Below, one piece after another: positions 42,701-57,698 of a stretch of DNA of 64,000 nt. Below the pieces are notes generated by a model that was not told where the DNA came from, did not search any database, and saw nothing but the letters and a program-made list of their open reading frames with translations. Within the stretch, counting starts at the first letter, position 1. Each line of letters starts with the position of its first letter. The stretch is taken from sequence record PZ534534.1; one strand, given 5' to 3'. Both the position numbers and the translations under genes were made by a program. The stretch comes from a phage.

Positions 42701-42724
42701 TACTTGAAAATTCCTGGCATATCA

Positions 42725-43200
42725 AGTATAAGGGGGATTTCTAAAATGGATTTCCTCCTTTTGATATTTCACCGGGCTGGATATTTTAAAATTCTTAGAA
42801 AATCAGAAAATGGATCGAAAACTAAAATGGATTTTTCAGAGTAGGCGCGACAAGCTGAATAGCTCATCCTATCGTTTGCACCATATTCCAGACCACCATT
42901 ATAGATTTCCCACACATGCTAACCTCCCTCTACTAGAACTTCCTCCACTTACCCTTGACCTTCTATGGTAACAATCTAACCACTATCTTGAAGTTGCGGT
43001 GCAGCTTTCCAGGTACTCGATCTACTTTTCATTCCAGGGCTTGGATTTTCTGAAAATTTTTCTCGATAAATTTCTCAGTACTCGATCTGTTTTTCGTTTT
43101 CTGAATCGGATTTTCTGGAAATCGTTCCGGATCTCGACCTGAAATTTTTGGGGACGAAATCTATTTTTCGTTTTCAGAAATGGATTTTTAAAATTTCTAT
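42725..43200. repeat. iteron-like direct-repeat region (GGATTTTC[T/G]GAAA and TACTCGATCT...TTTTCGTTTTC units)
   Basis: At least six GGATTT(T/C)-containing units plus duplicated TACTCGATCT and TTTTCGTTTTC blocks in AT-rich gene-free DNA, read directly. Confidence 0.5.
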
Positions 43201-43665
43201 ATGGGAATATTTTATGGGGCACTGTTTTATAGGAAATTGTTACGGAGGGTAATTAGCATGCTAATTAAATTTATTAAATGCGAGGGATTCTTATTTAGAA
43301 TTTTGAATGATAATTATTCTCGTTTGCAGAATAACGGGCAGGCCCGGTGATTGTCTCCCGGCCCCTGCTGCCCCGGCTTGTTATTATAGTATCACACAGG
43401 ACAAAGAAGGCAAGGATTTTTTGCATAAATTTTTAAATGATAATGATAACCGTTCTCATTTTATGAAGCGCCCATCCCCGGTGGTTGTCTCCCCCGTCAC
43501 CGGTGCCTGCCGTCCTTTCGATAGGTATATTATGCCGCCTGGCGGGGCCGCTGTCAACACTTTTCAAAAAATTTTTCTAACCTGATGCGCTAACCGTTGC
43601 AACCTGGCGGGGCCAGCCTGGCAGGTCCGCACTATAAAGTAAACAGCTACAGAAGAGGTACAAAA

Positions 43666-43842
43666 ATGAAAGGTAATGCTACTCGCCTGGGAAATGTAGT
43701 GATTAATGATACGGAAGCTATCGCCCTGGTTGAAAAGGTTATGGCGGGAGCGTTGGAACATAAAGAAGAGTACGAAAAAAAATGGTGGTTAACCTGGCGG
43801 GGGGCGGCAGGTGGATTCTATCATAAAAATAATTTAAAATAG
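43666..43842 (+). CDS. small early protein (58 aa)
   Basis: ATG after AGAAGAGG RBS (track start 43597 lies in GC-rich repeat). Confidence 0.45.
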   Translation: MKGNATRLGNVVINDTEAIALVEKVMAGALEHKEEYEKKWWLTWRGAAGGFYHKNNLK

Positions 43843-43844
43843 TC

Positions 43845-43874
43845 GTTGACAACAAGGTTAATCATGGTATTATT
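43845..43874 (+). promoter_or_regulatory. sigma70-type promoter (TTGACA-18-TATTAT)
   Basis: Read directly; track ORF start 43846 falls inside this promoter. Confidence 0.5.
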
Positions 43875-43923
43875 ACCCTACAAGGTGAACAACACCGCAC
43901 TAACCAGTAAAGAGGATAAATTT

Positions 43924-44121
43924 ATGAACGCATACGGGATCAAAGTACGTCGCAACACTCGCCAGGTGGTCACCAATCAAGTGATTTGCCGGGTGGATGT
44001 AACCATTAACAACGGGCAAGGCCTTTATAAATTTCGTCGCGGTCATAGCTATACCCTGCAACAGCTTGATCGTTGCGCCCTGACAAAAGGACAGATCAAC
44101 CACTGGTTTAATAAAAAATAA
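43924..44121 (+). CDS. small early protein (65 aa)
   Basis: ATG after AAGAGGA RBS downstream of promoter. Confidence 0.5.
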   Translation: MNAYGIKVRRNTRQVVTNQVICRVDVTINNGQGLYKFRRGHSYTLQQLDRCALTKGQINHWFNKK

Positions 44122-44124
44122 GTA

Positions 44125-44153
44125 TTGACATATAGTCCGACACCAAATACACT
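44125..44153 (+). promoter_or_regulatory. sigma70-type promoter (TTGACA-17-TACACT)
   Basis: Read directly upstream of 44186 gene. Confidence 0.5.
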
Positions 44154-44185
44154 AAAAGCACAAAAGACACTAAGAGGATAAAATC

Positions 44186-44584
44186 ATGAAAACCACTACC
44201 TTTAATTTTGATAATGCGGACTTTTCTTTTTCTGATGTCAAGAACTGCCGCCGTGATCGTGGATTTTACAAGGCTTATAATCTGGTGGGCCTGGACGATG
44301 ACAATAATTTGCACGAAGTAGCTGAGATCCGGTATTATGCCGCCGCCAGCGGGAACACTCACTACTGCGTGTTTTGGATTCACGACAACAAGAACAATAA
44401 GTACGGTTATACTGGCGGCAAGGCGAGCGGTCACGGTTACGATAAAGCTAACGCAGCACTTGAGGGCGCATTAAATGCTATGGGGATCACTGCCGACGGC
44501 TGGATCTACGAAGAAGAGTTTTTGTCGGCACTTGCTGACCACCTGGGCTATAAAAAACACATTGTAACATGTGCCCACGAATAA
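44186..44584 (+). CDS. early protein (132 aa)
   Basis: AAGAGGA RBS. Confidence 0.55.
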   Translation: MKTTTFNFDNADFSFSDVKNCRRDRGFYKAYNLVGLDDDNNLHEVAEIRYYAAASGNTHYCVFWIHDNKNNKYGYTGGKASGHGYDKANAALEGALNAMGITADGWIYEEEFLSALADHLGYKKHIVTCAHE

Positions 44585-44668
44585 AAAATTATTGACACGC
44601 TGCAAAATTCAAGTAAACTATACACAAAAGGCGGGAATGTTTCCCGCCAACACAAAGGAAAAAAGATC

Positions 44669-45064
44669 ATGAATAAGAACGTACGCCGCATCATGAACGA
44701 ACTGGCAAACGATGAAAAAATTATTGATATGCATTTGGTCAACATTTGCCACCGTTGTGTAACATACAACAACCGCGCCGCGAAAGCGCGTGAGATGAAC
44801 GCAAAAGGCACCTTAAAGCCCTTTCAGGTGGTTGTAAAATCTATAACTAGCGCAGCAGGCCAGGCGCATGACCACAACAACGAGAGCGCTAATATTGATC
44901 CGTCTTACGTAATGAAACGGATCCGGACTTGCAAGAATAAAGAGCAGGTGTATAACGTCATAGATTGGCTGGACTCCCTGGGCGATGTGGTTTACAATAG
45001 GTTTTCTGCAGCTATTGAGATTCAGTTAGACAGGTTGGACGGGAAAGTACTGAAAACTTACTGA
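44669..45064 (+). CDS. early protein (131 aa)
   Basis: 5' leader hairpin GCGGGAA-TGT-TTCCCGC then ACACAAAGGA RBS. Confidence 0.55.
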   Translation: MNKNVRRIMNELANDEKIIDMHLVNICHRCVTYNNRAAKAREMNAKGTLKPFQVVVKSITSAAGQAHDHNNESANIDPSYVMKRIRTCKNKEQVYNVIDWLDSLGDVVYNRFSAAIEIQLDRLDGKVLKTY

Positions 45065-45065
45065 G

Positions 45066-45111
45066 TTTATTTTTAGATGGCCTTGACTCCAGGGCCATCA
45101 ATAAAGTAAAC
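45066..45111 (+). repeat. conserved about 46-bp regulatory element, copy 1 (UP-like A/T tract + GATGGCC-TTGACTCCA-GGCCATC palindrome + AATAAAGTAAAC)
   Basis: Near-identical copies at 45688 and 49405; palindrome contains TTGACT. Confidence 0.6.
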
Positions 45112-45144
45112 TAACCACAGTTGAGCGGAAAGGGGGGCTTAAAG

Positions 45145-45264
45145 ATGAGTACTACACGCCAGCACACAAAGGTAACTATTATCGTTTGCATCATTGGGTA
45201 CATCCTGGCGCAAATGTTGATGGGTAGCGCCAACGGTGTCGCAAAATTTTTCTTAAACTTTTAA
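45145..45264 (+). CDS. small hydrophobic peptide (39 aa), absent from ORF track
   Basis: ATG after AAAGGGGGG RBS; IIVCIIGYILAQMLMG hydrophobic core; translated by hand. Confidence 0.35.
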   Translation: MSTTRQHTKVTIIVCIIGYILAQMLMGSANGVAKFFLNF

Positions 45265-45292
45265 TTGACAAGCTAACTTAAATCGATATAAT
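45265..45292 (+). promoter_or_regulatory. sigma70-type promoter (TTGACA-16-TATAAT)
   Basis: Read directly; followed by AAACGGGAAAACTTCCC leader hairpin. Confidence 0.55.
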
Positions 45293-45343
45293 AAGCACAT
45301 AAACGGGAAAACTTCCCAGAATACACAAAAGGAGAAAAACACC

Positions 45344-45685
45344 ATGACTACTATGACCGCCGCAGAAAAAGCTATGCAGATCGCTGAACTGAAAAAACAG
45401 ATCGCAGACCTTGAGAATAAGATCGATAACTTTGAAATCGACGAGGACAAGTACGACGAAAACTATGATGAATGGTTAGACGAGATCTACGGCGAAATTA
45501 TGATCGGAAACATTTCTTTTCTTCCGTCGCGTATCCTCAAGGAGTTAGATCCTATCGCTTACCGCTGCGGATTTAGCGACTACATCGACAGCCTGGATAT
45601 TGAGGACGATGAAGAATACCAGGAATTGCAGACAGAGCTGGAAGAAATGAAAGAAGAGCTTTCAGAGCTGGAAGAAAACGAGTAA
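45344..45685 (+). CDS. acidic coiled-coil early protein (113 aa)
   Basis: AAAGGAGAAAAAC RBS; heptad-like Glu/Leu-rich sequence. Confidence 0.55.
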   Translation: MTTMTAAEKAMQIAELKKQIADLENKIDNFEIDEDKYDENYDEWLDEIYGEIMIGNISFLPSRILKELDPIAYRCGFSDYIDSLDIEDDEEYQELQTELEEMKEELSELEENE

Positions 45686-45687
45686 AA

Positions 45688-45733
45688 TTTATTTTTAGAT
45701 GGCCTTGACTCCAGGGCCATCAATAAAGTAAAC
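45688..45733 (+). repeat. conserved about 46-bp regulatory element, copy 2
   Basis: Identical core to copy 1. Confidence 0.6.
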
Positions 45734-45772
45734 TTTACACTGTTAACACTGAACTAATGAGGAGTTAAAACC

Positions 45773-46018
45773 ATGGCAGCACTAATCACAAAATATTATG
45801 CGCCCACCAACACCAAAAGCGCCCGTATCATGGTAAAAGGCTTCGGACGTAAAAAGGTTTACACCTGGGATTATGCCTTAGACACGGAAGACAACTACAC
45901 CAACGCGATGACCGATTTTATTAATGATCTGAACACGCGGATCTTGACAAATTATAAAATTACCGATATTGCCTATATAGGGGAAGGCGGGATCTGTTTT
46001 GTCGGTATCGTCAAATAA
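45773..46018 (+). CDS. early protein (81 aa)
   Basis: TIR GGAGTTAAAACCATGGC identical to that of 50019 gene. Confidence 0.55.
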   Translation: MAALITKYYAPTNTKSARIMVKGFGRKKVYTWDYALDTEDNYTNAMTDFINDLNTRILTNYKITDIAYIGEGGICFVGIVK

Positions 46019-46093
46019 GCTGTTTTTTCGGTGGTCCTGGTAGCAGGGCCATCTATAAAGACAGTTTATCAACACAATGAAAGGAGAAAGTAC

Positions 46094-46447
46094 ATGATCA
46101 GCGGGGCAAGTTTTATTATTGGCGCTATTGCTACGGCTTTAATTGTAAACAAGATCCAATCTAAAAACGAAAAAGAGAGCAACGCGCTCACAGAATACCC
46201 ATTTTGGGTATTCAACGACAATGAAGACTACATTATCAAGTACAAGAATGAGAAGGGCGACCAGGTAACACCGCGACCGATCCCGGCTTACAAAATGCAG
46301 GAAACACTATACCGCCTAAAGGCTGGGGGCGCAAAAATTGTAGACTTTTGGGGATACGATCACACAGATCAGGAAGTTATAAAGCGCCGTATCCGGGCTA
46401 TTCAGGCCAATATTGAAGTTAGCAAGGGGGGAATATATGAAAATTAA
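46094..46447 (+). CDS. membrane-anchored early protein (117 aa)
   Basis: ATG after AAGGAGAAAG; N-terminal TM helix ISGASFIIGAIATALIV (track start 46031 lies in upstream palindrome). Confidence 0.5.
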   Translation: MISGASFIIGAIATALIVNKIQSKNEKESNALTEYPFWVFNDNEDYIIKYKNEKGDQVTPRPIPAYKMQETLYRLKAGGAKIVDFWGYDHTDQEVIKRRIRAIQANIEVSKGGIYEN

Positions 46448-46634
46448 TTTCGAGAAAATTGTAAAGCGCCCTCATGATTCCGAAGAGCTGCCAGAACGCC
46501 GCCAGCGTAACAATAAACTGAATAAGCCAAAAAGGTTTGGGAAGATCTGGCGTAATCATTATGATCGTAAATTGCCCGGCCTACTTTTGGAACGTGAACG
46601 ACAGGCAGAACGATACCGCCATAAAGACAAATAA
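46437..46634 (+). CDS. small basic early protein (65 aa)
   Basis: ATG after AAGGGGGG; Arg/Lys-rich. Confidence 0.45.
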   Translation: MKINFEKIVKRPHDSEELPERRQRNNKLNKPKRFGKIWRNHYDRKLPGLLLERERQAERYRHKDK

Positions 46635-46641
46635 CAACCAA

Positions 46642-46672
46642 CGCCCCGCCATTGTGCGGGGCTTTTTATTTC
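46642..46672 (+). terminator. rho-independent terminator
   Basis: GCCCCGC-cattgt-GCGGGGC hairpin followed by TTTTTATTT. Confidence 0.7.
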
Positions 46673-46792
46673 TATCCTACGAATAGCGCCCCTGGTTGGC
46701 CCTGTAAGCGCCAAAAAGGCCCCCACCTATGCAATCGCCCCCTTTAACCTGAAAACATCGCCCAAGGCCGTTTTATGGCGTTAAAAATATCA

Positions 46793-46820
46793 TTGACATC
46801 GTCAACAGGTTAGCTATACT
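46793..46820 (+). promoter_or_regulatory. sigma70-type promoter (TTGACA-16-TATACT)
   Basis: Read directly. Confidence 0.55.
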
Positions 46821-46852
46821 AACCACATCAAAGAGAGAAAGGAGTAAACGCC

Positions 46853-47113
46853 ATGCGTAAATTAAAAAATTTTGATAAAGTTGATGTTGTCCTGAATAAT
46901 TTTTACTACTGCAACAACAAGGCTATTTGGTGGCGTGATAGTTCCACCGATAAAGTCAAGGCGCGCTTTCTCCAGGGGCACTGGCAAGGCCGCCCAGTGA
47001 TTAAAATCATGGGGCAATTGGTAGCGTTTAAAAATTGCCGCCGTGTTGATGACGTTGAGGAGATTTTAAACATTTTGCGCCACAATAATTTAAAAAATAG
47101 TGTTGACAAGTAA
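46853..47113 (+). CDS. early protein (86 aa)
   Basis: AAAGGAG RBS. Confidence 0.55.
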   Translation: MRKLKNFDKVDVVLNNFYYCNNKAIWWRDSSTDKVKARFLQGHWQGRPVIKIMGQLVAFKNCRRVDDVEEILNILRHNNLKNSVDK

Positions 47114-47129
47114 ATCTTGATAAGTATAC
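47102..47129 (+). promoter_or_regulatory. sigma70-type promoter (TTGACA-16-TATACT) overlapping end of upstream gene
   Basis: Read directly; followed by AAACGGGAAAACTTCCCG leader hairpin. Confidence 0.55.
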
Positions 47130-47187
47130 TTAAACACGTAAACGGGAAAACTTCCCGCCACTAACAAAGAAAACAGGAGAAAATATC

Positions 47188-47811
47188 ATGACCACCGTTA
47201 ACATTACCACAGGTTACAATTTATCTTTCGACGTGCTGACCGACGAACAAAAAGAAAAAGCCATTGAAATGGTACGCGAAAGAGAAGAACACAGCGGGGA
47301 TGACTTTTTTGCAGAAAGTGTAATTGAACACTACAAAGAATATATCTTTCCAGAGTACGGCCTTGAAGATACCGAAGTACATTGGTCCGGCTTTTGGTGC
47401 CAGGGTGACGGCGCTTCAATCAGTGCTGAAAACGTGGATTTAGAAAAATTTTTGCGTAAAGTAAAGGCCCTGACCAAGTTCCGATCAATTCGTCACTTGT
47501 TCGGCACAATGCACGATGGCGAGTTATCAGCCAGTGTTGAACGCGACAAGTACAGCCATTACAGCCATGAAAACACTGTAAGCGGATACATTGATACCAC
47601 CTGGCTAGATCTGACCGCCAAACAAGAAAACAAAGTGGAAGACCTGGAAGAGCTGATCACCGAGACGGTACGGGAGCTATCCCGCAAGGTTTACGTAGAC
47701 CTGGAGGGGGCCTATCTTGAACAATTCACTACCGAAAACCTGATCGGCCTTATCGAGGCCAATGATTGGCGGTTTGATGTGGATGAAGATGGCGAGATGA
47801 CTTTTTCATAA
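47188..47811 (+). CDS. early protein (207 aa)
   Basis: ACAGGAGAAAA RBS; acidic. Confidence 0.6.
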   Translation: MTTVNITTGYNLSFDVLTDEQKEKAIEMVREREEHSGDDFFAESVIEHYKEYIFPEYGLEDTEVHWSGFWCQGDGASISAENVDLEKFLRKVKALTKFRSIRHLFGTMHDGELSASVERDKYSHYSHENTVSGYIDTTWLDLTAKQENKVEDLEELITETVRELSRKVYVDLEGAYLEQFTTENLIGLIEANDWRFDVDEDGEMTFS

Positions 47812-47901
47812 ATAAAGTGTTGCAATAACCTAAAAACCTGCTATATTAAAACTCAAGGGGGCAAGACGTTTGCCCCCACACAAAACAAAGAGGAAAACAT
47901 C

Positions 47902-48282
47902 ATGAAAAACACTACTAAAGCTATTGACACCGTTATGTTTAACCTGGTTACCTTTCGCGAGGATATGAAAGATCTTCCGCGTGAAACAGTGTGCGACCAT
48001 ATCGAAAACTATCGCAAACTAATCAAAGAGTTGCCTTTAAAACGTGATCAGTATGCGGCTAACGCCATGCTTAATGCCATGATCAAAAAGATGATCCAGT
48101 GTGATTTAACTCTAGCCTATGATTATGCGGGTGGTCGTTTTGCAGTATACAATCAGCCCGTGCCCGGTATGAGCACCACCGAAGAATTGCACGCGCTCAA
48201 TCTAAAACAAGACGTGTGGGATAGTATGCCTCGCGTGGTGGTATGGGTAGAAAGCGGAAAGATTTACGGCGATAATTTTTAA
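47902..48282 (+). CDS. early protein (126 aa)
   Basis: Leader hairpin GGGGGCAAGACGTTTGCCCCC + ACACAAAACAAAGAGGAAAAC RBS. Confidence 0.55.
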   Translation: MKNTTKAIDTVMFNLVTFREDMKDLPRETVCDHIENYRKLIKELPLKRDQYAANAMLNAMIKKMIQCDLTLAYDYAGGRFAVYNQPVPGMSTTEELHALNLKQDVWDSMPRVVVWVESGKIYGDNF

Positions 48283-48291
48283 TCAGGTAAC

Positions 48292-48316
48292 AGGCGGCAT
48301 ATTTGCCGCCTTATTG
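48292..48316 (+). terminator. rho-independent terminator
   Basis: GGCGGCA-tat-TGCCGCC hairpin followed by TTATTGTT. Confidence 0.6.
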
Positions 48317-48346
48317 TTAATCAGAACTGTAAAAGAGGTACATAGA

Positions 48347-48718
48347 ATGGAATTTATTATTTTGGCTGTATTGGTTGCCTTGTTTAACGCCTGGATCGCT
48401 GGCAAGATGGGAAGATCCGCCTTTTTATGGTTTATTATATCTATTTTCCTGGGGGTGGTTGCAACTATTGTATTGGTTATCCTTGCAATTGTTGACAAGG
48501 GGAATAATAGAAAGGGTAAAGTATTTTCAGACCTGTACGACGCTCAAACGTTTGTCAACGCCTATTATAGTGATCTTCCAGTCTCCCTACGTTGCAGCCT
48601 TGCACAACAGGTTTTCGATGAAGCTAAAACCAGAGATCACGCCCATGAGATTTGTTTAACTGAGGCGGATCGCTTATTTGAGAGGAATAGAAAATATGTG
48701 GGCCAGCCGTTTAAATAA
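48347..48718 (+). CDS. membrane protein (123 aa, two predicted TM segments)
   Basis: ATG after AAAAGAGG; MEFIILAVLVALFNAWIAG and FLWFIISIFLGVVATIVLVILAIV hydrophobic segments. Confidence 0.5.
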   Translation: MEFIILAVLVALFNAWIAGKMGRSAFLWFIISIFLGVVATIVLVILAIVDKGNNRKGKVFSDLYDAQTFVNAYYSDLPVSLRCSLAQQVFDEAKTRDHAHEICLTEADRLFERNRKYVGQPFK

Positions 48719-48937
48719 TACCACGTTAATTAATCCATTTAGTGAAGATTTGAGGCCAGCCGCCTGGCGGGATGGATTCAATAATGAAAGCTTTATTTTC
48801 AGGCCTGATCTTAAGGAATTTTATAACAATGGATCGAACAACGACAGAGATAATTTTTCTTGTAATGTGCGTGGTGATAATACTCCTGGGGGCCATTGCA
48901 AACCACGTCACTACTAACAGGAGGAAAGGGGGAGACG

Positions 48938-49057
48938 ATGACACCCAAGGATAAGCCCCGCACCGATAAGGCGCGCCGTGTTATGGTATGGCTGGAGATC
49001 ATCGCCCTTGAAATATTGTTAGGCGTAGGGATGTATTTTATCGCTGTACGCACCTGA
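48938..49057 (+). CDS. small membrane peptide (39 aa), absent from ORF track
   Basis: ATG after AGGAGGAAAGGGGGAG RBS; C-terminal TM WLEIIALEILLGVGMYFIAV; followed by terminator. Confidence 0.4.
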   Translation: MTPKDKPRTDKARRVMVWLEIIALEILLGVGMYFIAVRT

Positions 49058-49061
49058 TAAC

Positions 49062-49090
49062 GGCCCCCGATCCCTGGGGGCCTAACTTTT
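49062..49090 (+). terminator. rho-independent terminator
   Basis: GGCCCCC-gatccct-GGGGGCC hairpin followed by TAACTTTTC. Confidence 0.55.
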
Positions 49091-49113
49091 CAAAAAATTT
49101 TTCTTCCGGGGTG

Positions 49114-49141
49114 TTGCAATCCGGTCCAGAATATGGATAAT
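49114..49141 (+). promoter_or_regulatory. sigma70-type promoter with extended -10 (TTGCAA-16-TGGATAAT)
   Basis: Read directly; same AATATGGATAATA block recurs at 49951. Confidence 0.5.
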
Positions 49142-49201
49142 AACAATCAACGGGGAGACACTCCCCCACCACATAGACAAAGTTCCAAAAGGAGAAACAA
49201 A

Positions 49202-49402
49202 ATGAGCAACAATATCCGCGTTATTAACTTCAAAAAAGAAGAAAAAATTGCTGTGCTGGTTGATGGTCAAGAAATATTCAAGGGGTATTATGAAGATCAT
49301 CAGGTGGCGATCAGTATTACCCGCGTGATTGGTTATCATAATTTCTACCCCCAAGGCGCTGAGGCAGCAGTTAAACGAATCAAAGAGATTGTAGGCCTGT
49401 AA
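49202..49402 (+). CDS. small early protein (66 aa)
   Basis: ATG after AAAGGAGAAAC (track start 49133 upstream in same frame). Confidence 0.5.
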   Translation: MSNNIRVINFKKEEKIAVLVDGQEIFKGYYEDHQVAISITRVIGYHNFYPQGAEAAVKRIKEIVGL

Positions 49403-49404
49403 AA

Positions 49405-49450
49405 TTTATTTTTAGATGGTCTTGACTCCAGGACCATCAATAAAGTAAAT
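49405..49450 (+). repeat. conserved about 46-bp regulatory element, copy 3 (compensatory variant GATGGTC...GACCATC)
   Basis: Same element as copies 1 and 2, with paired substitutions that preserve the inverted repeat. Confidence 0.6.
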
Positions 49451-49493
49451 TTAAACCCTGTTAAAATAATCAGTGCAAAAAGGAGCAATGATC

Positions 49494-49793
49494 ATGTTTA
49501 TACCCGCCAATAATCTTTATTTCTTTGATGGTCAGATCGTAGACGGCGTGGAAGTTGAGATCACTGGATGTCAAGGCGGCCAGGTAATGATCTTCCGCAA
49601 TAGTGCATTTAACGATCAATTCATTACAATGACCATGGAAGTCAAAAAGCTGGACGATAAGAAGACACTCATTGACTATTCCGTGAAAGATCATCCAGAC
49701 TACCACATGATCTATGGTGATTTGTGCATTGTTGACCGTGACAAGGTGGGCGGCATTGTGATCGCTATTGTGAACGATGTTTTCTCTGAATAA
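49494..49793 (+). CDS. early protein (99 aa)
   Basis: ATG after AAAAGGAG. Confidence 0.5.
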   Translation: MFIPANNLYFFDGQIVDGVEVEITGCQGGQVMIFRNSAFNDQFITMTMEVKKLDDKKTLIDYSVKDHPDYHMIYGDLCIVDRDKVGGIVIAIVNDVFSE

Positions 49794-49933
49794 TTCCAGC
49801 AAATGATGCAAAATAAGGCCCATGGCAGGGCCTGCAGCGATATAATCACATAAAGGCTATGCGGTTGCATGGCCTTTATTATTTTGGCGCTACAGCGGCC
49901 CCCAAGGCGCTTAAAAAATTTTTAAAGAAGTAC

Positions 49934-49961
49934 TTGCATCAAGCCCTACAATATGGATAAT
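49934..49961 (+). promoter_or_regulatory. sigma70-type promoter with extended -10 (TTGCAT-16-TGGATAAT)
   Basis: Read directly upstream of 50019 gene. Confidence 0.5.
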
Positions 49962-50018
49962 AGGACGTGTCAGGGGGGCGGCCCCCAATCATTAACCGGA
50001 TAGATAGGAGTTAAAACC

Positions 50019-50303
50019 ATGGCTATTGTTACCGTTGGCGATGTAGTAGAAATGGAAGCAAAATACTTAAAAGCGGGTATGCATATCCTACGCAACGATC
50101 TTGAACTAGTCCTGACAATGGTTGACTATAATCCCGGTCAGGATTATCCAAGCATCGACTACTTTTTTGAGTATGTCGATGAAGAGCTAAAAGAGGATGA
50201 GGCCTATTGCGGTGAGTTCTGCAACTTCTTTTGTCCTGATGAGGTTGTAAAAGTTATCTATCAACCTGGCGTACCTTTCCCGCTGCATGCTATCAACAAA
50301 TAA
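50019..50303 (+). CDS. early protein (94 aa)
   Basis: AGGAGTTAAAACCATGGC TIR. Confidence 0.55.
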   Translation: MAIVTVGDVVEMEAKYLKAGMHILRNDLELVLTMVDYNPGQDYPSIDYFFEYVDEELKEDEAYCGEFCNFFCPDEVVKVIYQPGVPFPLHAINK

Positions 50304-50358
50304 ACCTGGCGGGGCCGAAAAGGCCCCCAATTATGAAAATAAAGAGAGGCAAATCATC

Positions 50359-50478
50359 ATGATGGAACAAATTAAACGCACCGAGGCTATTAATGGCAAC
50401 GTGATCTATTTTGTCAGCAATAACGAAAAAGGCGTACCCTATGCGGCGGTAATAGTACAACCTGACGGCGATTATTAG
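50359..50478 (+). CDS. small early peptide (39 aa)
   Basis: ATG after AGAGAGG downstream of GGGGCC-GAAAA-GGCCCC hairpin (track start 50287 upstream in same frame). Confidence 0.35.
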   Translation: MMEQIKRTEAINGNVIYFVSNNEKGVPYAAVIVQPDGDY

Positions 50479-50663
50479 TTTACTGTGTACGGCGCTTATT
50501 CTTTTGGGCGTCCGGTGCATGATAGAATTTTGAAAGTAGCGAACCCTACCGGGAAAAATATCACAGCAGAAAAATTTTTTGAAAATAGTTGACATGACCA
50601 TATAAGACTGTAGTATATAAATCAAAGGGGCAAGCCCCACCAACCACAAAGAGGATAAAAATC

Positions 50664-50843
50664 ATGGCTATTATTGCAAAGACTGAGATCGTAGGCTTGG
50701 ATTCTATTCTCCTCGCATATGAGGAAGCTATAGAAATGTATGTGGTTTCCTATGGTGAGTATATCCGTGAATATAAATCTATTGATCTGGCTTTTGAATG
50801 TTATATTCGCCAGGTTAATAAAGCGTACGATGATTATCGTTAA
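50664..50843 (+). CDS. small early protein (59 aa), absent from ORF track
   Basis: Leader hairpin GGGGCAAGCCCC + ACCACAAAGAGGATAAAAATC RBS + ATG; TTGACA promoter at 50589. Confidence 0.5.
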   Translation: MAIIAKTEIVGLDSILLAYEEAIEMYVVSYGEYIREYKSIDLAFECYIRQVNKAYDDYR

Positions 50844-50933
50844 AATAGTTTGAAAACAAACAACCATCTTACAAAGCATAATACATAAGGCGGTGGAATG
50901 GTCCGCCACCTGGAACAAGAAGAGGAAAACAAG

Positions 50934-51038
50934 ATGAAACAGAAATTAATTGATGCGGTGATCCTAGCTATTGCCCTGGGTATTGGCCTGATTGCAACCA
51001 TGTCTAATATGATCTTGTCTTCCAACGGTATCGGGTGA
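50934..51038 (+). CDS. small membrane peptide (34 aa), absent from ORF track
   Basis: AAGAAGAGGAAAAC RBS; hydrophobic AVILAIALGIGLIA. Confidence 0.35.
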   Translation: MKQKLIDAVILAIALGIGLIATMSNMILSSNGIG

Positions 51039-51047
51039 GGTTGGCAA

Positions 51048-51263
51048 ATGATCACTAACAAAACAGGCAAAACAGAATTTTTACGCAACTTACAGATCGG
51101 CAAGCCTGAGATCTGGTATTGCACTAAAACACCACGTGACGAAATGAAAGACTTCACCGCCACGCTGCAACGGGTAAAGATATCCATCACGCAGAAAAAG
51201 GCCTTATTAGTGGTGGAAGGTGAGATCCCCCAAACCGTTGTTATAGTTGAGCGTACAGCATAG
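51048..51263 (+). CDS. small early protein (71 aa)
   Basis: GAGGT RBS. Confidence 0.5.
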   Translation: MITNKTGKTEFLRNLQIGKPEIWYCTKTPRDEMKDFTATLQRVKISITQKKALLVVEGEIPQTVVIVERTA

Positions 51264-51354
51264 TTTAATTTATACCGATACCCGAAAATTAACCAACAAA
51301 GCATAAACAGGCGGTTACCGCCGCCTTAAACGTAGCAGAAAGAGGATAGACACA

Positions 51355-51639
51355 ATGAAAAAGATGATCGCAGTGGTTGCCCTAGTTGTTGGACTTAATG
51401 CGCCTGTAATGGCCAAAGAGCTGGCAAAAGAGGTTAATCTAACGGATATTCATGCCGTCAATCGAATCGGGGTTACTTATCGCTTATGCCTTGCCACTAA
51501 AACTTTTAAGGACGGCACAACAGAGTACTACGGATTCGAGGGTGTCCGGTGCGGTGAGCTTGCTCGCGACCTTAAGGAAGATCCAGACCTGGAAGATCTG
51601 CCCATCACCGTAAACGGTAAAGCTTACGTAAACCGTTAA
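51355..51639 (+). CDS. secreted small protein with signal peptide (94 aa)
   Basis: AAAGAGGA RBS; N-terminal MKKMIAVVALVVGLNAPVMA signal-peptide-like segment. Confidence 0.55.
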   Translation: MKKMIAVVALVVGLNAPVMAKELAKEVNLTDIHAVNRIGVTYRLCLATKTFKDGTTEYYGFEGVRCGELARDLKEDPDLEDLPITVNGKAYVNR

Positions 51640-51641
51640 CC

Positions 51642-51776
51642 ATGAGAAAGATAATCATCACCTTGGGGATTGTGGTGGCAATATTGGCGCTCTTTCCCCT
51701 TATGGTTAGGTATGTGCTGATCGGTATTGTCCTGGTAGTCAGTGATCTATTGGAAACGGTTGGCACCTTGTTTTAA
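51642..51776 (+). CDS. small membrane peptide (44 aa), absent from ORF track
   Basis: ATG 2 nt after upstream stop (coupled); two hydrophobic stretches. Confidence 0.3.
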   Translation: MRKIIITLGIVVAILALFPLMVRYVLIGIVLVVSDLLETVGTLF

Positions 51777-51788
51777 AGAGCGGTAAAA

Positions 51789-51980
51789 ATGAATATCGAA
51801 CAAGTTAGAAAGGTATTGGCGGTACTGCGTTATCATAATCATAGAAAGGTTATAGACGATCCTGATTATGTTGATTCAAGTCTGGAAGGGGATACACTGC
51901 AAGCCATAAGCAACATGCAAGAATTGCTAAAGCGCATGACAGAGAAAAACCGACCGGACTACATAGGCGAAAAAATATAA
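51789..51980 (+). CDS. small early protein (63 aa)
   Basis: ORF from track; weak terminator-like hairpin follows. Confidence 0.45.
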   Translation: MNIEQVRKVLAVLRYHNHRKVIDDPDYVDSSLEGDTLQAISNMQELLKRMTEKNRPDYIGEKI

Positions 51981-52192
51981 TATTTATAAACTACAAAACA
52001 GGGCTTGCAATGGTCCTGTTTTTTGTTATACTTGTTTCACGGCAGGCACCTGGCGACAGGGGGAGACAATCACCGGGTGTGCCTGCTATATAAAAACTAT
52101 AAAAACCGTTGACATCTGCCAGGTGGTGGGGTAGCATTTATCTCGAAGGGGGCAAAAGCGCCCACACAACAACCGGAAGAGAGGAAAACGCC

Positions 52193-52465
52193 ATGTTAAG
52201 CTGGATTAACCAAGAAGTTGAATCACGTTTTAATGCTATTTGGGATCTCATCGAAAAAGAGGACGGAACATCAAGCCCTTATCTCAATAATCTTGAATTC
52301 CATTTCGTGGAAGCGATGAACGCAGAACATGATCACGAAGGTGGTGCGGATGAATTCGCTAAAGGATATGGCTTCAACAATGCCAACGAAATGATCGAGG
52401 CGGTTGTACTCCAGGCTGAGGAAGATTATCAATTAAAAACGCTTGAATTCTGCCGCCGTAAGTAA
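52193..52465 (+). CDS. early protein (90 aa)
   Basis: ATG after GGAAGAGAGGAAAAC preceded by leader hairpin (track start 52109 lies in promoter). Confidence 0.5.
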   Translation: MLSWINQEVESRFNAIWDLIEKEDGTSSPYLNNLEFHFVEAMNAEHDHEGGADEFAKGYGFNNANEMIEAVVLQAEEDYQLKTLEFCRRK

Positions 52466-52525
52466 TAAGATAATGACACGGGCCAAAAGGCCCACTAATC
52501 AGAACCACACAAAGGGAGAAAGAAA

Positions 52526-52744
52526 ATGACAACCCGTAAAATTAAAGTTGTTTGCATTGAATCGACTGGGGGCGCTTTTGTAGTTGGTCAGGAATATAAT
52601 GCGGTTTTAATGGGTACGGATTGGAAGGTTAAAGGCCTTAATGGTTACGAGTACGGCACTACTTGCGGCTTGCGTGGTCGAATCGGATACGTGAGTTTAG
52701 ACAATAAAGAAAAATTTGTTTTCGACACCCTTGTGAGTAAATAG
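52526..52744 (+). CDS. small early protein (72 aa)
   Basis: Leader hairpin GGGCCAAAAGGCCC + CACACAAAGGGAGAAAG RBS. Confidence 0.55.
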   Translation: MTTRKIKVVCIESTGGAFVVGQEYNAVLMGTDWKVKGLNGYEYGTTCGLRGRIGYVSLDNKEKFVFDTLVSK

Positions 52745-52822
52745 CATGAATTGCTAAAAACTGATCTGCGAACTGCTGTATTATCAACTAATCAAAACGA
52801 ACCACATAAAGAGGAAAACATC

Positions 52823-53086
52823 ATGAAACGTCTGGATCAGCTTAAATTAGTTCAGTACATGGCCTACAGAATTCTTGAAGTCCAAAAAGGTAGCAAAAAA
52901 GAGGTTTGCGAGAAAGCTTATAAGATCTTTACTCGCAAAAAAGATGACTGGATGCTACGCCAGACCAAAAAATCCGATATCCTGGGGTACCTGGAAGAAG
53001 AGATCCGGCTTGAAGAGCAAGAAGAGATCCGCCGTAGTGAGGCAGATTATCAGGCAGCTTGGGAAAACTGGATGAGCAACAAATAA
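52823..53086 (+). CDS. early protein (87 aa)
   Basis: ATG after CATAAAGAGGAAAACATC (track start 52751 upstream in same frame). Confidence 0.5.
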   Translation: MKRLDQLKLVQYMAYRILEVQKGSKKEVCEKAYKIFTRKKDDWMLRQTKKSDILGYLEEEIRLEEQEEIRRSEADYQAAWENWMSNK

Positions 53087-53152
53087 TACAACAAGTTACA
53101 TGGTCAGGGGCAATAAAGCCCCTTGATCACATAAAAATTATGCTATCCTTGG

Positions 53153-53181
53153 TTGACAGGGATCGGCAGTTTTGCTATATT
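53153..53181 (+). promoter_or_regulatory. sigma70-type promoter (TTGACA-17-TATATT)
   Basis: Read directly upstream of 53232 gene. Confidence 0.55.
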
Positions 53182-53231
53182 CTTTTTTGAAGGGAAGTTG
53201 TAAGAAAATTAACTGAGAGGTAAAAAACACC

Positions 53232-53651
53232 ATGAACATTAAATCTGATAATCCGGCATATAGCTTTGATAACGCTTTTTGTCACGGTCCGGCGGCGAAA
53301 GGATTCGAAATCGATGGTAAACTAATTATTGTCAATGTTGACGGGGAAGAGGTTGCAGTATATCCGGTGGCGGACGTTAAAAGCCGTCTACAATGCCGCA
53401 TGGATGTTACCGCCTATCAGCTTGATCCGGTCCGCATAGTTGCCCTGGTCCTGGAAGAAGAAATTAAAGCCATGCACCATAGCAACAGATTTATTGGTGA
53501 CGCGCAGGATAATATGAAAGTATGCCGCCATAAAGTTAATGAAGTGCTTAAAGAGTACGGTTATAAAGATCTTATGATCAAACGTGAGGAAAAATTCCGC
53601 TACCGTAACGACCTGGCAAATCGGATTTTTGAAATATACGAATCATTATAA
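53232..53651 (+). CDS. early protein (139 aa)
   Basis: GAGAGG RBS; last gene of plus-strand early block. Confidence 0.55.
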   Translation: MNIKSDNPAYSFDNAFCHGPAAKGFEIDGKLIIVNVDGEEVAVYPVADVKSRLQCRMDVTAYQLDPVRIVALVLEEEIKAMHHSNRFIGDAQDNMKVCRHKVNEVLKEYGYKDLMIKREEKFRYRNDLANRIFEIYESL

Positions 53652-53670
53652 TTTTTTAACTGAATTATCA

Positions 53671-53699
53671 AGGGGCTTAGGCCCCTTTCTTTTTGTCTG
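53671..53699 (+). terminator. rho-independent terminator
   Basis: AGGGGC-tta-GCCCCT hairpin followed by TTCTTTTTG. Confidence 0.7.
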
Positions 53700-56098
53700 C
53701 TCTTCTCCTACCATAAACGGCCCTACCTGGCAAGTGGAATAATTGACTAGCTATTAATCCCACACACTGTACAAATATACATGGAAAATAACTATTGCAT
53801 AATTTTTCATTGTGTGGTAGCAAGGCCATTTTTGCCCGTTTTCTCTCCCAAAATTGCACGTAATGCCGCTATTGCATAAATTTTAACCTGATGCATATCT
53901 TCAATATCTTGTCAACAAATAAAAATTCTTATAAGTCATACACTTACACAACATCGAAAGCGTGTCCTATGCGAAAAATCGAGTATAACTATAGCCGCCA
54001 GATTTCAGAATTTACGTACGCTCACCATTCTATAGCTTGCTAAGTATTTATTCCAACCATAGAATAACGGAATAGTCAATACCTGCATAAAATAATTATT
54101 CGTTTAAATTGCATAACATAAATCAGCTCAGGTGTCAACATTTTTCGTAAACAGTCCGAAATTGTCACGGCAAGTTATCATAAGCAGAGAAATCTTTAGT
54201 CGTCTAATGTTTACTGTACGTTACTATACTAACTGGAATCATTAGATGACTAACAGAAAGATAAGAAATAATTAATAATGTAATTGTTTTACCTGTAACA
54301 ATAAGGCAACTATGCAAACGAATGGCATGGCGCGACGGAGTCGCGACATAATATAAAAGCAGTAACCATCACCCCCGTGATAGTTTGTCTGCAAACTATT
54401 AATCAGATCATAGTTGCCTTGTATTTAGTTAATCATGACATAACAAGCAAGGCAACTATAGATCTGCTAATAGTTGCCCTGCTTTTATATTATGTCATAT
54501 ATTATTAACTTGTTAATTGTTAACTTGCTAATTGTTTTCATGCAAACGAATGTCATGGCTTATCATATCTGTGTAAACTGTCAAGGTGTAAACAGTCTAT
54601 GCGGGAACAATCTATACGTGAACAGTGAAACATGAAATAATAACAGTCGTTATTGTGCCATATTGTGTCCGGTGTGTCAGACAAGTTTTTCTCCTCTTTG
54701 TCAAGTGCTGCATGAAAAATTTACAAACTGGTATGGTAGCATTTTTGCGGCCCTGTTTACATTCAGCGATGTATGTATAATCCTTGTTGTGTGGGCGTTT
54801 AGACGTCTAGACGGTTGGAAGTCTGCAGGTCAATATCTAATCTATTGGCTGCTAACTATATCCCACACAAATAGTAAGAAATATGATTGTTATATGCGTA
54901 AACTGTAACTCATGTTATCAATCCCTGTATGTATCGCCAGTGGTGCGCATAATGGGTATTATGTTAAATTGCCCGTAATGATAACTATTCTCACAATGAT
55001 AGGTATTCTCATTCACCCCCACAAGATAGGTTGCAAATGTTGTGCCACTGTGTGAACGGCCTCACCTATTAATTTGCCTCACTGCCTCGATATTTGAGAA
55101 TTATTATAAGAATGAGAAGTATTCCCATTTCGTCCGCCTGGCAGCACTCCAGTCGCTACCGCTCATGACAGGGCAGAACTAGACCCTCTTCAGATATTTC
55201 TGGCTGACTCTTCAGGTCTGTGTGGGAAAAGCCAACCTCTCCGGCGGGGAAGGGGAGGTCAATTAAAAAATTTACGTGGTGTATGAAGCGCTCTTCAGGT
55301 AAGGCATGTGTTATGGGATGAAACCCTCTTCAGGCAATGATATTTGTGGGTGTGATATTTGCTGGAAAGCCAGATATGACGGGACTCCCGGCGGGGCAGG
55401 GGTAGTACAGACAAGGAAAATGTGGGGATGTGGTGGGAGTAAATTGATCAGACAGGTAGAGTATGGAATATGTTACAGGTATGTTAAATAGGGAGGCTGA
55501 ATATCTGTAAGATTTGTGTGTAAAATCAAAGACTTAAGTGGTGTTGTGGTATTTTCTATAAATAATTCAAGTTTAATAGGTAATATTTGTCTCTATCCGC
55601 CTTGTGTGGTAAACAGATTCAGATGAGATTGGTTTACAAGTGTATACATAATATACAAATTAAAGATACAAGAAACCCCCCTCCCCCTTCGGCTACCATT
55701 CACCTTTTCCTCTGACTGGTACTTAAACACTTATTCAGACTCTTCAGGTTATCACCCATATATCATATGGCAGTGACTGGTGTCCTCCGGCCACTCTTTC
55801 GTCACCCGTCCGCTTCGCCATGCTAATGCCATAGCCAATGGTTCGGTTGTTCACCCTGTTCACTCAGGTGTATCTCCATACCCCTTCAAACCGAAGAGAA
55901 CAGAAAACCCGAATTACTCGGTAAAAGAAAAGAGAAGAACTTAATTTTATCAGGATAGGCAAGAATGTCAAGGCATGACTGCTCACTAAACAAGCAAACA
56001 GTCATGTGTGGGAGGTAAGTGATTGTGGTGGTAGGAAATTTAGTTGAAAGATGTGTTATAGGTGCTTCCAGCACTTTAGCCGGGCAGCTAATTGTGTG
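53700..56098. other. 2.4-kb gene-free strand-switch region with nested palindromes and iterated motifs (candidate replication origin / regulatory hub)
   Basis: No convincing ORF on either strand; inverted repeats, direct repeats and six CTCTTCAGG copies read directly. Confidence 0.5.
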
Positions 56099-56395
56099 TC
56101 AGTCCAGCGGTTCATCCTCTACTTCACTGAAATCAATATTCATGGTCTCTTCCCAACCATCGATCTCAGCACAAGAGTGGAGTTCTTTAGGGTTTACTCC
56201 CAAAGCCTCAGCAACAGAGTCTATATTTAACACCTCTGGCAGGTATGATTCATCGAATTCAAGGTAAATCAGGCCACGAGTGTTGTCAGCCCCACCAAAT
56301 ATTTCTATCTTCATAAAATCTCCTCTGGGAATGAGAGTGTGAACAGGGTTTTATACGTTCCAATGCACAAGAATTATACACGTTTGCCTCTTCAG
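55186..56395 (+). repeat. six dispersed copies of CTCTTCAGG-type motif, all in same orientation
   Basis: Copies at about 55186, 55208, 55291, 55326, 55740, 56387, read directly. Confidence 0.5.
56099..56314 (-). CDS. small acidic protein (71 aa)
   Basis: GAGGAG RBS 6 nt upstream on minus strand. Confidence 0.5.
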   Translation of the reverse strand: MKIEIFGGADNTRGLIYLEFDESYLPEVLNIDSVAEALGVNPKELHSCAEIDGWEETMNIDFSEVEDEPLD

Positions 56396-56435
56396 GCCAT
56401 GCTTTAGCATGAGGAACCTGTGTGGGCTCGGTGCT

Positions 56436-57643: not shown

Positions 57644-57670
57644 CTCAAATCTCCTTCATAGATAGTAAAA

Positions 57671-57696: not shown

Positions 57697-57698
57697 CA

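Follow-up and report, generated by a model that had tools for sequence, protein, structure and literature searches.

A probable PeSL-type cassette array in the small-gene region of an rV5-like coliphage

Promoter cassettes and gene exchange

Promoter-early stem-loop (PeSL) cassettes are found in the hyperplastic regions of the phages RB49/phi1, T4/PST and KVP40/nt-1 (Arbiol 2010, PMC2839356; Comeau 2014, PMC4122927). Each starts at a stop codon and ends at an ATG; between the two lie an A+T-rich stretch, a sigma70 consensus and a Shine-Dalgarno (SD) site, with a G/C stem-loop at one of five positions (downstream of the -10 box being one of them). PeSLs go together with insertions and deletions (indels) of ORFan genes whose crossovers lie within the motif (PMC2839356, PMC4122927). 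The experimental hallmarks of PeSLs are promoter or terminator activity in a reporter and circular excision products, or mini-circles (Arbiol 2010, PMC2839356). Here we describe positions 43600-53700 ("the region") of a 64,000-nucleotide stretch of genomic DNA (sequence record PZ534534.1, "the window") from a Vequintavirus (rV5-like) Escherichia coli phage, which a first-pass annotation made from the sequence alone had read as an early takeover module of mini-genes. The region is probably the distal part of the hyperplastic accessory region of small open reading frames (ORFs) of rV5-like phages and is laid out, on this reading, as a PeSL-type cassette array; a literature search found no mention of PeSLs for this phage group.

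The orthologous locus in phage rV5 is ORF164-197 (DQ832317; Kropinski et al. 2013), with 92.6% identity over 99% of the region and the same gene order. A megablast search of the region against GenBank phage records matched 236 records, 60 of which covered at least 80% of it at 91-95% identity, nearly all of them Vequintavirus (rV5-like) E. coli myoviruses; in rV5, Mangalyan and many other members of the genus the genes are collinear, with 92-94% identity over 97-100% of the region. In the rV5 record, all of ORF164-197 are hypothetical and are accompanied by six 'Sigma70-type' promoters (P195B, P195A, P192, P186, P168 and P164) and an adjacent 'non-coding' box. Content differs slightly, with extra or missing small ORFs in rV5 and an amber codon interrupting one gene (g20 in our numbering) in the window. 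The cluster and half of its promoters were previously in the rV5 record, so the gene-and-promoter cluster is not new and the first-pass observation is a rediscovery of a described feature. Per the available part of Kropinski 2013 (PMC3606486), the wider rV5 region comprises 88 mainly small ORFs, and 33 sigma70-like promoters are predicted, spread over the whole genome; neither the record nor that part of the paper mentions the hairpins at the 5' ends, the D1 repeat or the indels of cassettes reported below. Positions 43600-53700 are only the distal third of the small-ORF region, and 43600 proved to be the wrong place for the start of the cluster, whose small genes begin upstream, near 40900. 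The matching records also include 23 unannotated GenBank entries (MG0656xx) named 'Campylobacter phage' (host C. jejuni), at ~92-94% identity, which look like mislabelled or contaminating coliphage assemblies.

Similar to the PeSLs of T4-type phages, the spacers of the region carry a stop-to-ATG composite motif between small ORFans, comprising a sigma70 promoter with an A+T-rich stretch upstream and a characteristically placed stem-loop of a G-run and a C-run, and indels between close relatives have their crossovers inside this motif. One PeSL subclass also has its stem-loop downstream of the -10 box, as in the region. In contrast, RB49-like stem-loops lie mostly between the boxes, whereas those of the region nearly always follow the -10, and crossovers in the region use the leader and SD part of the motif as well. 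The T4-type phages that carry PeSLs are Straboviridae and the region belongs to the Vequintavirinae, and their motifs have no sequence similarity: the intergenic regions of JSE, an RB49-like phage, read stop codon, A+T-rich stretch, TTGACA, hairpin, -10 and SD, so that layout is shared but not sequence, and the only nucleotide homology to JSE is a single ORF. As PeSLs are a design class and not a sequence family, our claim is limited to 'works like': the region appears to be a PeSL-type accessory cassette array in the Vequintavirinae through shared design, not shared descent.

On this model, about 29 small genes would be arranged as short transcription units, each expressed from a standard intergenic cassette in which an upstream stop codon is followed by an A+T-rich stretch, sigma70 -35 and -10 boxes with a spacer of 16-17 nucleotides (nt), a GC hairpin, a CA-rich leader, a strong SD site and an ATG. 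The intergenic gaps are mostly 58-91 nt long, keep the same order of elements and contain the repeat families D1, D3 and D7.

Twelve sigma70-type promoters were found in the region, all on the + strand and with spacers of 16-17 nt. Matches to TTGACA-N16-18-TATAAT at 11 or more of the 12 positions number five on the + strand and none on the - strand of this 10.1-kb region, compared with a mean of 0.12 and a maximum of 2 in 200 dinucleotide shuffles; at 10 or more positions there are ten and none, compared with 1.75 in shuffles. The 20 nt upstream of the -35 boxes are 78% A+T, against 57% for the region. Using a comparison set of the window and eleven relatives (loci L001-L011), to which all counts of variation and of relatives below refer, no position is variable among 72 in the -35 boxes, 8 of 72 are variable in the -10 boxes and 57 of 195 in the spacers; other intergenic positions vary at 526 of 2014 (26%), a rate from which the -35 (Fisher p = 8e-10) and the -10 (p = 0.004) both differ. 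Three promoter-like sites inside D1 hairpins are left out of these counts. This comparative signal is strong evidence that the hexamers are under purifying selection and are used by a sigma70-type holoenzyme. The proposal that host RNA polymerase drives the region is thus supported by promoters that are strand-specific, far above chance in number, A+T-rich upstream and under purifying selection in their hexamers among the eleven relatives. From the promoter type we infer that expression is early: the unmodified host holoenzyme would fire these promoters on DNA entry.

Six of the twelve correspond to promoters in the rV5 record: P1 (43846..43873, TTGACA-16-TATTAT with a TG; rV5 P195B), P2 (44125..44153, TTGACA-17-TACACT; P195A), P4 (45265..45317, TTGACA-16-TATAAT, a 12/12 match; P192), P5 (46793..46820, TTGACA-16-TATACT; P186), P12 (53153..53181, TTGACA-17-TATATT with a TG; P164) and, probably, judging by position, P11 (52109..52163, TTGACA-17-TAGCAT; P168). 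The others are P3 (44592..44648, TTGACA-16-TAAACT), P6 (47103..47157, TTGACA-16-TATACT), P7 (47820..47877, TTGCAA-16-TATATT with a TG), P8 (49114..49166, TTGCAA-16-GATAAT), P9 (49934..49986, TTGCAT-16-GATAAT) and P10 (50589..50638, TTGACA-16-TAGTAT); the spans of P3, P4 and P6 to P11 include their 5' hairpins. Every promoter named in the first-pass annotation is present, some with a small correction. Those at 45265 and 46793 stand as TTGACA-16-TATAAT and TTGACA-16-TATACT, and so does TTGACA-17-TATAAT at 35632, upstream of the region; the TTGACA/TATAAT promoter at 41324 has a spacer of 16 and not 17, the TTGACA-16-TATACT given for 47102 starts at 47103, and the TTGACA-17 promoter at 53153 is present with a -10 that reads TATATT. 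The extended -10 elements ascribed to 49114 and 49934 did not hold, since the TG lies at -14/-13 (TATGGATAAT) and is therefore not canonical; our consensus scan flags 49114 as lacking a TG, and 49934 is absent from the sites that the scan lists, its reading being taken from the sequence itself. That most genes sit behind a near-consensus promoter was an overstatement: 12 genes have a conserved promoter of their own, five of these matching at 11 or more positions, and the remaining genes are the second to fifth genes of short operons.

Gene content varies between relatives at the cassettes. Chained blastn comparisons with the eleven relatives distinguished 15 structural events with a length of 100 nt or more. 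Deep coding sequence, more than 15 nt from the nearest gene end, makes up 67% of the region but holds only 6 of the 26 ends of these events (binomial p 6e-6). At least seven genes (g5, g6, g24, g25, g26, g28 and g30) are not universal, each being absent from some natural relative, and repeats bound several of the junctions. Phage ime has neither g5 nor g6, and its g4/g7 spacer is a chimeric D1 with the left flank of copy 1 and the right flank of copy 2. The facultative g28 is bracketed by two leader repeats of ~25 nt (ACTAATCA..AACCACA.AAAG.GG), and an extra gene found before g22 in several relatives is bracketed by a 32-nt repeat over the SD site and the first five codons. Insertions recur at three hot spots: at 49798-49807 (within 49794..49933), where five relatives carry a gene of 335-349 nt; in the g22 leader at 50918-50949 (within 50844..50949, which also holds a hairpin at 50889-50907), where relatives have 291-634 nt with one or two extra genes; and at 51981-52021, where three relatives have a gene of 354 nt right after the terminator at 51995. 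Recombination between shared cassettes thus shuffles genes among natural relatives, and these cases are direct evidence that the shared sequences are sites of gene gain and loss. As the cassettes share sequence, homologous recombination can add, delete and swap whole genes without breaking their expression.

Genes and design also recur outside the genus. A 250-kb contig of a jumbo-sized phage (ENA contig k123_64921) carries a g11 homolog with 58% identity, and its positions 3500-10500 hold genes of ~60-200 amino acids (aa), many of them separated by spacers of ~60-100 nt in which GTACTTGCA-N16-TATAAT (TTGCAA-16-TATAAT) is followed by 12 nt, a GGGG..CCCC hairpin and an SD site, the same design of a promoter followed by a hairpin at +5. 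Homologs of g27 with 34-51% identity were found by tblastn in T1-like and other coliphages, and g24 is ~80% identical in Phapecoctavirus. Upstream of the region, ORF 41383-41574 (63 aa), behind the perfect promoter at 41324, has 84% DNA and ~87% protein identity to a gene of Krischvirus JSE and its relatives (1501-1692 in our locus L016); both ends of the homology fall within 4 nt of the start or stop codon, and the promoter is missing from JSE, which indicates a recent ORF-precise exchange between two unrelated myovirus families. The morons of lambdoid phages (Hendrix and colleagues) are likewise autonomous units with their own promoter and terminator, inserted between genes and variably present. 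Unlike morons, the units of the region are in a virulent phage, stand in tandem and share repeated regulatory sequence that mediates exchange.

Compared with the rV5 record, the present analysis adds measurable purifying selection on twelve promoters, a hairpin leader that is standard at the 5' end and a covarying intercistronic RNA hairpin. The PeSL idea of a mobile regulatory cassette would no longer be confined to T4-type phages but would cover a group of coliphages in therapeutic use, rV5-like phages being common both in the BASEL collection and in phage cocktails. The map of about 29 ORFs suggests which of them can be deleted or swapped, and where, and the conserved cassettes may serve phage engineering as ready-made strong expression modules, early ones if the promoter type is a guide.

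Intercistronic and leader hairpins

In the early region of phage T7, the RNase III processing sites R0.3-R1.3 lie between early genes. A comparable element, D1, is the only element of the region that looks undescribed. It is a 57-nt repeat at 45066, 45688 and 49405 with a diverged copy at 46024, and its hairpins on the + strand occupy 45064..45112 (copy 1, g4/g5 gap, 79 bits), 45686..45734 (copy 2, g6/g7 gap), 46018..46066 (copy 3, g7/g8 gap, 77 bits) and 49403..49451 (copy 4, g16/g17 gap). Each copy starts a few bases past a stop codon and ends ~35-45 nt upstream of the next start, and the downstream gene has no promoter of its own. A covariance-model search of the 64-kb window found only these four copies, all within the region, and BLAST retrieved D1 solely from Vequintavirus-type records (121 records, ~3 copies each), in which it is never annotated.

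The predicted D1 fold has 20 base pairs (bp) in two parts: lower and upper stems of 10 bp each, separated by a 2x3 internal loop, and a 4-nt loop at the tip. Over the 21 distinct copies in the window and the relatives, pairing holds in 98.3% of cells, and five pairs are changed on both sides. The covariation score is 0.245, compared with 0.146 in shuffles (0 of 500 reach the observed value) and at most 0.07 with the partners slid. Among the orthologues of copy 3, the lower stem passes from CUGU/ACAG through a G-U intermediate to UUAU/AUAA, and in copy 4 a U-A pair in the window replaces a C-G pair present in 11 of 11 relatives. G-U pairs occur only in the + sense.

Similar to the RNase III sites of T7, D1 is an intercistronic duplex of ~20 bp, with two stems of ~10 bp split by an asymmetric internal loop, and is repeated between the early cistrons of one polycistronic unit; it has no sequence similarity to them, and the likeness is one of predicted fold and position. 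By this analogy we hold, with moderate confidence, that D1 acts on the RNA, marking it for processing or stabilising it in the manner of a T7 RNase III site. The Keio screen with phage LL12, in which only lipopolysaccharide genes were required, shows that RNase III is not essential for a V5-like phage and is uninformative on D1 cleavage. RNase III is not essential for T7 either.

Three of the four copies also contain TTGACT-18-TAAACT or TAAATT, with the TTGACT in the loop, and these sites (45083, 45705 and 49422) were at first counted among the sigma70 promoters; they were dropped because the covariation showed that it is the pairing, not the boxes, that is conserved. D1 could on these grounds be a PeSL-type promoter, a DNA-level recombination site or both, and not an RNA signal, as a stem-loop between or over the -35 and -10 boxes is the commonest PeSL layout (Arbiol 2010, PMC2839356) and D1 was the crossover site of the g5 and g6 deletion in ime, with copies 1 and 2 as its left and right partners. 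We consider this rather doubtful. Copy 3 has no -35-like TTGAC and reads GACAGT at the -10 position, yet keeps all 20 pairs through compensatory changes; the conserved pairing includes the lower stem, which would be the -10 region; G-U pairs are confined to the + sense; and an 18-nt spacer with a -10 box matching at 4 of 6 positions would make a weak promoter.

Taking D1 as an RNA signal, it is possible, if still speculative, that D1 represents an undescribed phage signal for mRNA processing or regulation and, jointly, that some of the cargo genes encode new defence inhibitors or superinfection-exclusion factors. In that case cleavage by host RNase III, or the binding of a phage factor, at D1 might set the stoichiometry and lifetime of the early messages. 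D1 and the promoter cassette with its +5 hairpin could then form a portable expression kit common to unrelated coliphage lineages, and the g11 family (with its confident, unmatched fold), the secreted g24 product and the four membrane peptides of 34-44 aa could be the inhibitors or exclusion factors. The locus would gain in interest if D1 proved to be a processing signal or any of the ORFans a defence inhibitor.

GC hairpins as a class are concentrated between the genes, with 23 in 2.5 kb of intergenic sequence (9.2/kb) and 11 in 7.6 kb of coding sequence (1.4/kb), a 6.5-fold difference in density. Their stems vary at 61 of 358 positions and their loops at 47 of 111 (p 1e-7). At 9 of the 12 promoters, a hairpin begins 9-12 nt past the -10 box (predicted transcript positions +4 to +7) and is followed by a CA-rich unpaired leader and then the SD site; the two promoters without any hairpin have leaders of 26 nt. 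The hairpins mapped lie at 44630-44648 for P3 (-14.6 kcal/mol, z -5.0, from about +5), 45305-45317 for P4, 47143-47157 for P6, 47857-47877 for P7 (-15.9 kcal/mol, z -5.7), 49152-49166 for P8, 49973-49986 for P9, 50627-50638 for P10 and 52148-52163 for P11. A 5'-terminal stem-loop is a classic stabiliser of E. coli mRNA, as in ompA and the T7 phi10 leader, and the 5' hairpins of the region most likely guard short mRNAs against 5'-end-dependent decay, and transcription reading through from upstream units may be damped by them as well.

Five or six predicted intrinsic terminators would end the transcription units on the + strand. They are located at 46643..46670 (7 GC pairs and a T-run, the stem invariant in relatives), 49062..49092, 49850-49879 (within the insertion hot spot 49794..49933), 51995..52030 and 53670..53697 (which closes the + strand block), all with a T-run, and at 48292..48320, where an 8-bp stem with a weak T-run could be a terminator or an attenuator. 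Scans of the window and of the non-coding box for Rfam families and transfer RNAs gave no match. That the hairpins behind the promoters are themselves terminators or attenuators insulating the cassettes from read-through further upstream, a role suggested for PeSLs, or antisense terminators, and not mRNA stabilisers, is unlikely in our view. One PeSL stem-loop did cut lacZ expression as much as rrnB T1 (Arbiol 2010, PMC2839356), several of the hairpins are followed on the - strand by T/G-rich tracts and were scored as terminator-like, and terminator-like sites number 31 where 13.6 are expected. On the + strand, in contrast, the hairpins have no U-tract, and each is part of the transcript that it heads, starting at +4 to +7, where a strong terminator would kill the downstream gene, and canonical terminators with T-runs exist separately at 46643, 49062, 51995 and 53670.

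Gene content and the takeover proposal

A scan for start codons and SD sites gave 30 candidate ORFs of 34-207 aa, all on the + strand, of which some 28-29 are credible, leaving about 29 real genes and agreeing with the first-pass count of about 28 mini-genes in that size range. Over the 30 candidates, variable sites are distributed over codon positions 1:2:3 as 235:154:715, the signature of translated genes, with 8% of second and 34% of third positions variable. All but one of the candidates (29/30) match PHROG families, every one of unknown function, and scans against Pfam and NCBIfam found no family reaching its cut-off, in keeping with the earlier remark that no known enzymatic motif is present. 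The ORF at 49859-49960 (33 aa) is probably not a gene, having no PHROG match and sites of 6:5:4 (ratios below are for codon positions 1:2:3 throughout) and overlapping a terminator hairpin.

The first genes of the region are g1 (43666..43842, 58 aa, SD GAGGT, PHROG 21957, with in-frame indels in relatives), g2 (43924..44121, 65 aa, PHROG 7119, 4:4:13, intact in 10/10 relatives), g3 (44186..44584, 132 aa, PHROG 7028, 6:3:35), which is a narrow ORFan with only four homolog clusters, and g4 (44669..45064, 131 aa and basic, PHROG 13245, 3:4:13). The two genes missing in ime follow: g5 (45145..45264, a 39-aa membrane peptide, PHROG 16391, 7:1:13) and g6 (45344..45685, 113 aa, PHROG 9294), whose product is very acidic (isoelectric point 4.1) and coiled-coil-like, the Pfam scan giving only sub-threshold coiled-coil noise. 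Next are g7 (45773..46018, 81 aa, PHROG 3199, 5:5:32), g8 (46094..46447, 117 aa with an N-terminal membrane segment, PHROG 12734, 16:9:49), g9 (46437..46634, 65 aa and very basic, PHROG 8176, 4:4:26) and g10 (46853..47113, 86 aa, PHROG 11241, 6:3:25). The largest product is that of g11 (47188..47811, 207 aa, PHROG 5162), which is acidic and fast-evolving, with 73 synonymous and 70 non-synonymous codon variants and homologs reaching down to 34% identity; the motifs WSGFWSQGDGAS and YSHENTV are conserved. It is followed by g12 (47902..48282, 126 aa, PHROG 7352, 6:6:37), g13 (48347..48718, 123 aa with two membrane segments, PHROG 13090, 7:1:30), g14 (48696..48917, 73 aa, PHROG 12060, intact in 5/11 relatives) and g15 (48938..49057, a 39-aa membrane peptide, PHROG 13629, 6:3:11). 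The coding status of g14 (14:14:17) is weak.

Further along lie g16 (49202..49402, 66 aa, PHROG 12347, 3:1:23), g17 (49494..49793, 99 aa, PHROG 7366) and g19 (50019..50303, 94 aa and acidic, PHROG 12610, 12:5:49). An in-frame amber TAG at 50476-50478, where relatives have TGG, cuts the conserved 77-aa gene g20 (50359..50592) to 39 aa, so that PHROG 9227 is matched at profile positions 1-39 of 77 only; because of this codon, the rest of g20 appears as a 185-nt intergenic gap before g21 (50664..50843, 59 aa, PHROG 9374, 2:2:11). Two short genes follow, g22 (50934..51038, a 34-aa membrane peptide, PHROG 14631, 3:2:3, too few sites to judge) and g23 (51048..51263, 71 aa, PHROG 5988, 6:1:26). The product of g24 (51355..51639, 94 aa, PHROG 9845, missing in L011) has an N-terminal signal peptide and is probably secreted or periplasmic, and that of g25 (51642..51776, 44 aa, PHROG 16005, missing in L003) is very hydrophobic (grand average of hydropathy 1.94); with sites of 16:11:16 and thus no third-position bias, the coding status of g25 is also weak. 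The region closes with g26 (51789..51980, 63 aa, PHROG 9599, missing in L011), g27 (52193..52465, 90 aa and acidic, PHROG 7287), g28 (52526..52744, 72 aa, PHROG 27558, a facultative cassette missing in 7/11 relatives), g29 (52823..53086, 87 aa, PHROG 11701, 8:3:31) and g30 (53232..53651, 139 aa, PHROG 12277), a narrow and facultative ORFan that is missing in L010 and L011 and whose homologs are all at least 74% identical. The membrane peptides under 45 aa mentioned in the first-pass annotation are g5, g15, g22 and g25, candidates with one predicted segment each.

Several functional labels given to these genes in other records were rejected. 'YeeU-like antitoxin' for g11 and 'acetyltransferase' for g3 have no sequence or fold support, 'DNA translocase FtsK' for g29 in some records has no support in Pfam or NCBIfam, and the 'putative holin' label of g13 (which relatives also call 'membrane protein') and a 'phosphonoacetaldehyde hydrolase' label in other GenBank records are unsupported. 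PDB sequence searches with g11, g3, g30 and g24 and with a g11 profile returned nothing meaningful; g3 and g30 are confined to close relatives, and a useful alignment would need more diverse homologs than they have. Only for g11 was a confident structure model obtained (AlphaFold2, predicted local distance difference test (pLDDT) 86.5). The small size of the products, their membrane, secreted or acidic character, their patchy presence and one fast-evolving family would fit, by analogy, accessory roles in host interaction, exclusion or counter-defence, and not core replication or morphogenesis. The suggestion that the region harbours inhibitors of the host or its defences would follow from analogy in the same way, and new inhibitors can at present only be hoped for.

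The SPO1 takeover module, the T4 early 'monkey-wrench' genes and the T5 pre-early genes are likewise clusters of many very small genes, all preceded by a strong promoter of host type and an SD site, with products that inhibit the host or whose function is unknown. No homology to those clusters was found, and the gene content of the region varies between isolates. It is improbable that the region is a fixed host-takeover module of the SPO1, T5 pre-early or T7 class I type that shuts off host DNA, RNA and protein synthesis. Such a module would account for the dense, strong sigma70 promoters, the strong SD sites and the small proteins without enzymatic domains, and about two thirds of the genes are found in all eleven relatives. 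It fits poorly with the absence of at least seven genes from natural, viable relatives, the insertion of others at three hot spots, the amber codon in one gene of this phage and the lack of similarity to known shut-off proteins in PHROG, Pfam and NCBIfam. Additionally, the cluster lies at the distal end of a ~39-kb block whose larger ORFs are all on the + strand and apparently not at a first-entering genome end. Since at least seven genes are missing in natural relatives, much of the content is best seen as dispensable accessory cargo and not as a fixed takeover programme. The conservation data refute the view that promoters and ORFs are chance matches or annotation artefacts of A+T-rich spacer, which is almost certainly wrong: weak consensus matches are indeed abundant (32 on the + strand at 9 or more of 12 positions, against 13.6 in shuffles) and two or three of the smallest ORFs lack a coding signal, but the promoters are strand-specific with invariant hexamers, the codons show third-position bias and 29 candidates fall in PHROG families.

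The following points weigh against an array of early, exchangeable accessory cassettes. As sigma70-like promoters are found throughout the rV5 genome, the expression of the region might not be confined to the early phase, and a literature search found no transcriptome or functional screen of rV5-like early genes. The enrichment of breakpoints outside genes may come from the purging of gene-disrupting indels and not from a preference of recombination, though selection against disrupted genes does not explain the repeat-bounded junctions. Outside D1, the hairpins behind the promoters covary little: 27 changes break the pairing, 15 on one side retain it and one pair type is compensatory. Their proposed function is deduced from position only. 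Transfer between families can involve the ORF alone, as in the sole case examined (41383-41574 and JSE), in which the promoter was not included. Searches of PHROG, Pfam, NCBIfam and the PDB, by sequence or fold, assigned no protein function; the g11 model had no informative neighbour in the PDB or BFVD, and the g30 model was of low confidence (pLDDT 69) and retrieved nothing with Foldseek.

Flanking sequences

Just upstream of the small-gene cluster, positions 40334-40873 encode a 179-aa macro-domain protein, labelled 'phosphatase' or 'macro domain' in relatives. Its NCBIfam match to the DarG antitoxin macrodomain is weak (E 7e-10) and far short of the family cut-off, and it is a candidate ADP-ribose-removing counter-defence enzyme. 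NADAR-type anti-DarT factors have been reported in other Vequintavirinae. Between this gene and the region, an ORF-poor stretch (42700-43600) that is also a gap in the rV5 annotation contains three tandem T-rich repeats of ~65-74 nt at 43003-43190.

Downstream, the + and - strand gene blocks converge on 53700-56000, the 'non-coding box' of rV5, which is heterogeneous. Conservation is high in two blocks, 54300-54499 with 4-9% and 55700-55999 with 2-5% variable columns, compared with 26% in ordinary intergenic sequence, and 54500-54699 between them is hypervariable and indel-rich (55-73% variable). The block at 54300-54499 has iteron-like ATAGTTGCC(T/C)TG units facing either way and an inverted repeat of 18 nt with no mismatch (54345-54362 and 54479-54496), and tandem 15-mers and 18-mers come after these elements. 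A - strand promoter (TTGACA-16-TAAAAT, 55971-55944) is directed into the block at 55700-55999; the RNA fold predicted for 55700-56000 was not notable (z -1.5) and had no Rfam match. The box may be an origin, regulatory DNA or an unannotated small RNA. Beyond it, positions 56000-64000 mirror the + strand cluster, with small genes on the - strand and sigma70-like sites at 10 or more of 12 positions numbering seven on the - strand and none on the + strand, and the cassette organisation probably continues into this block.

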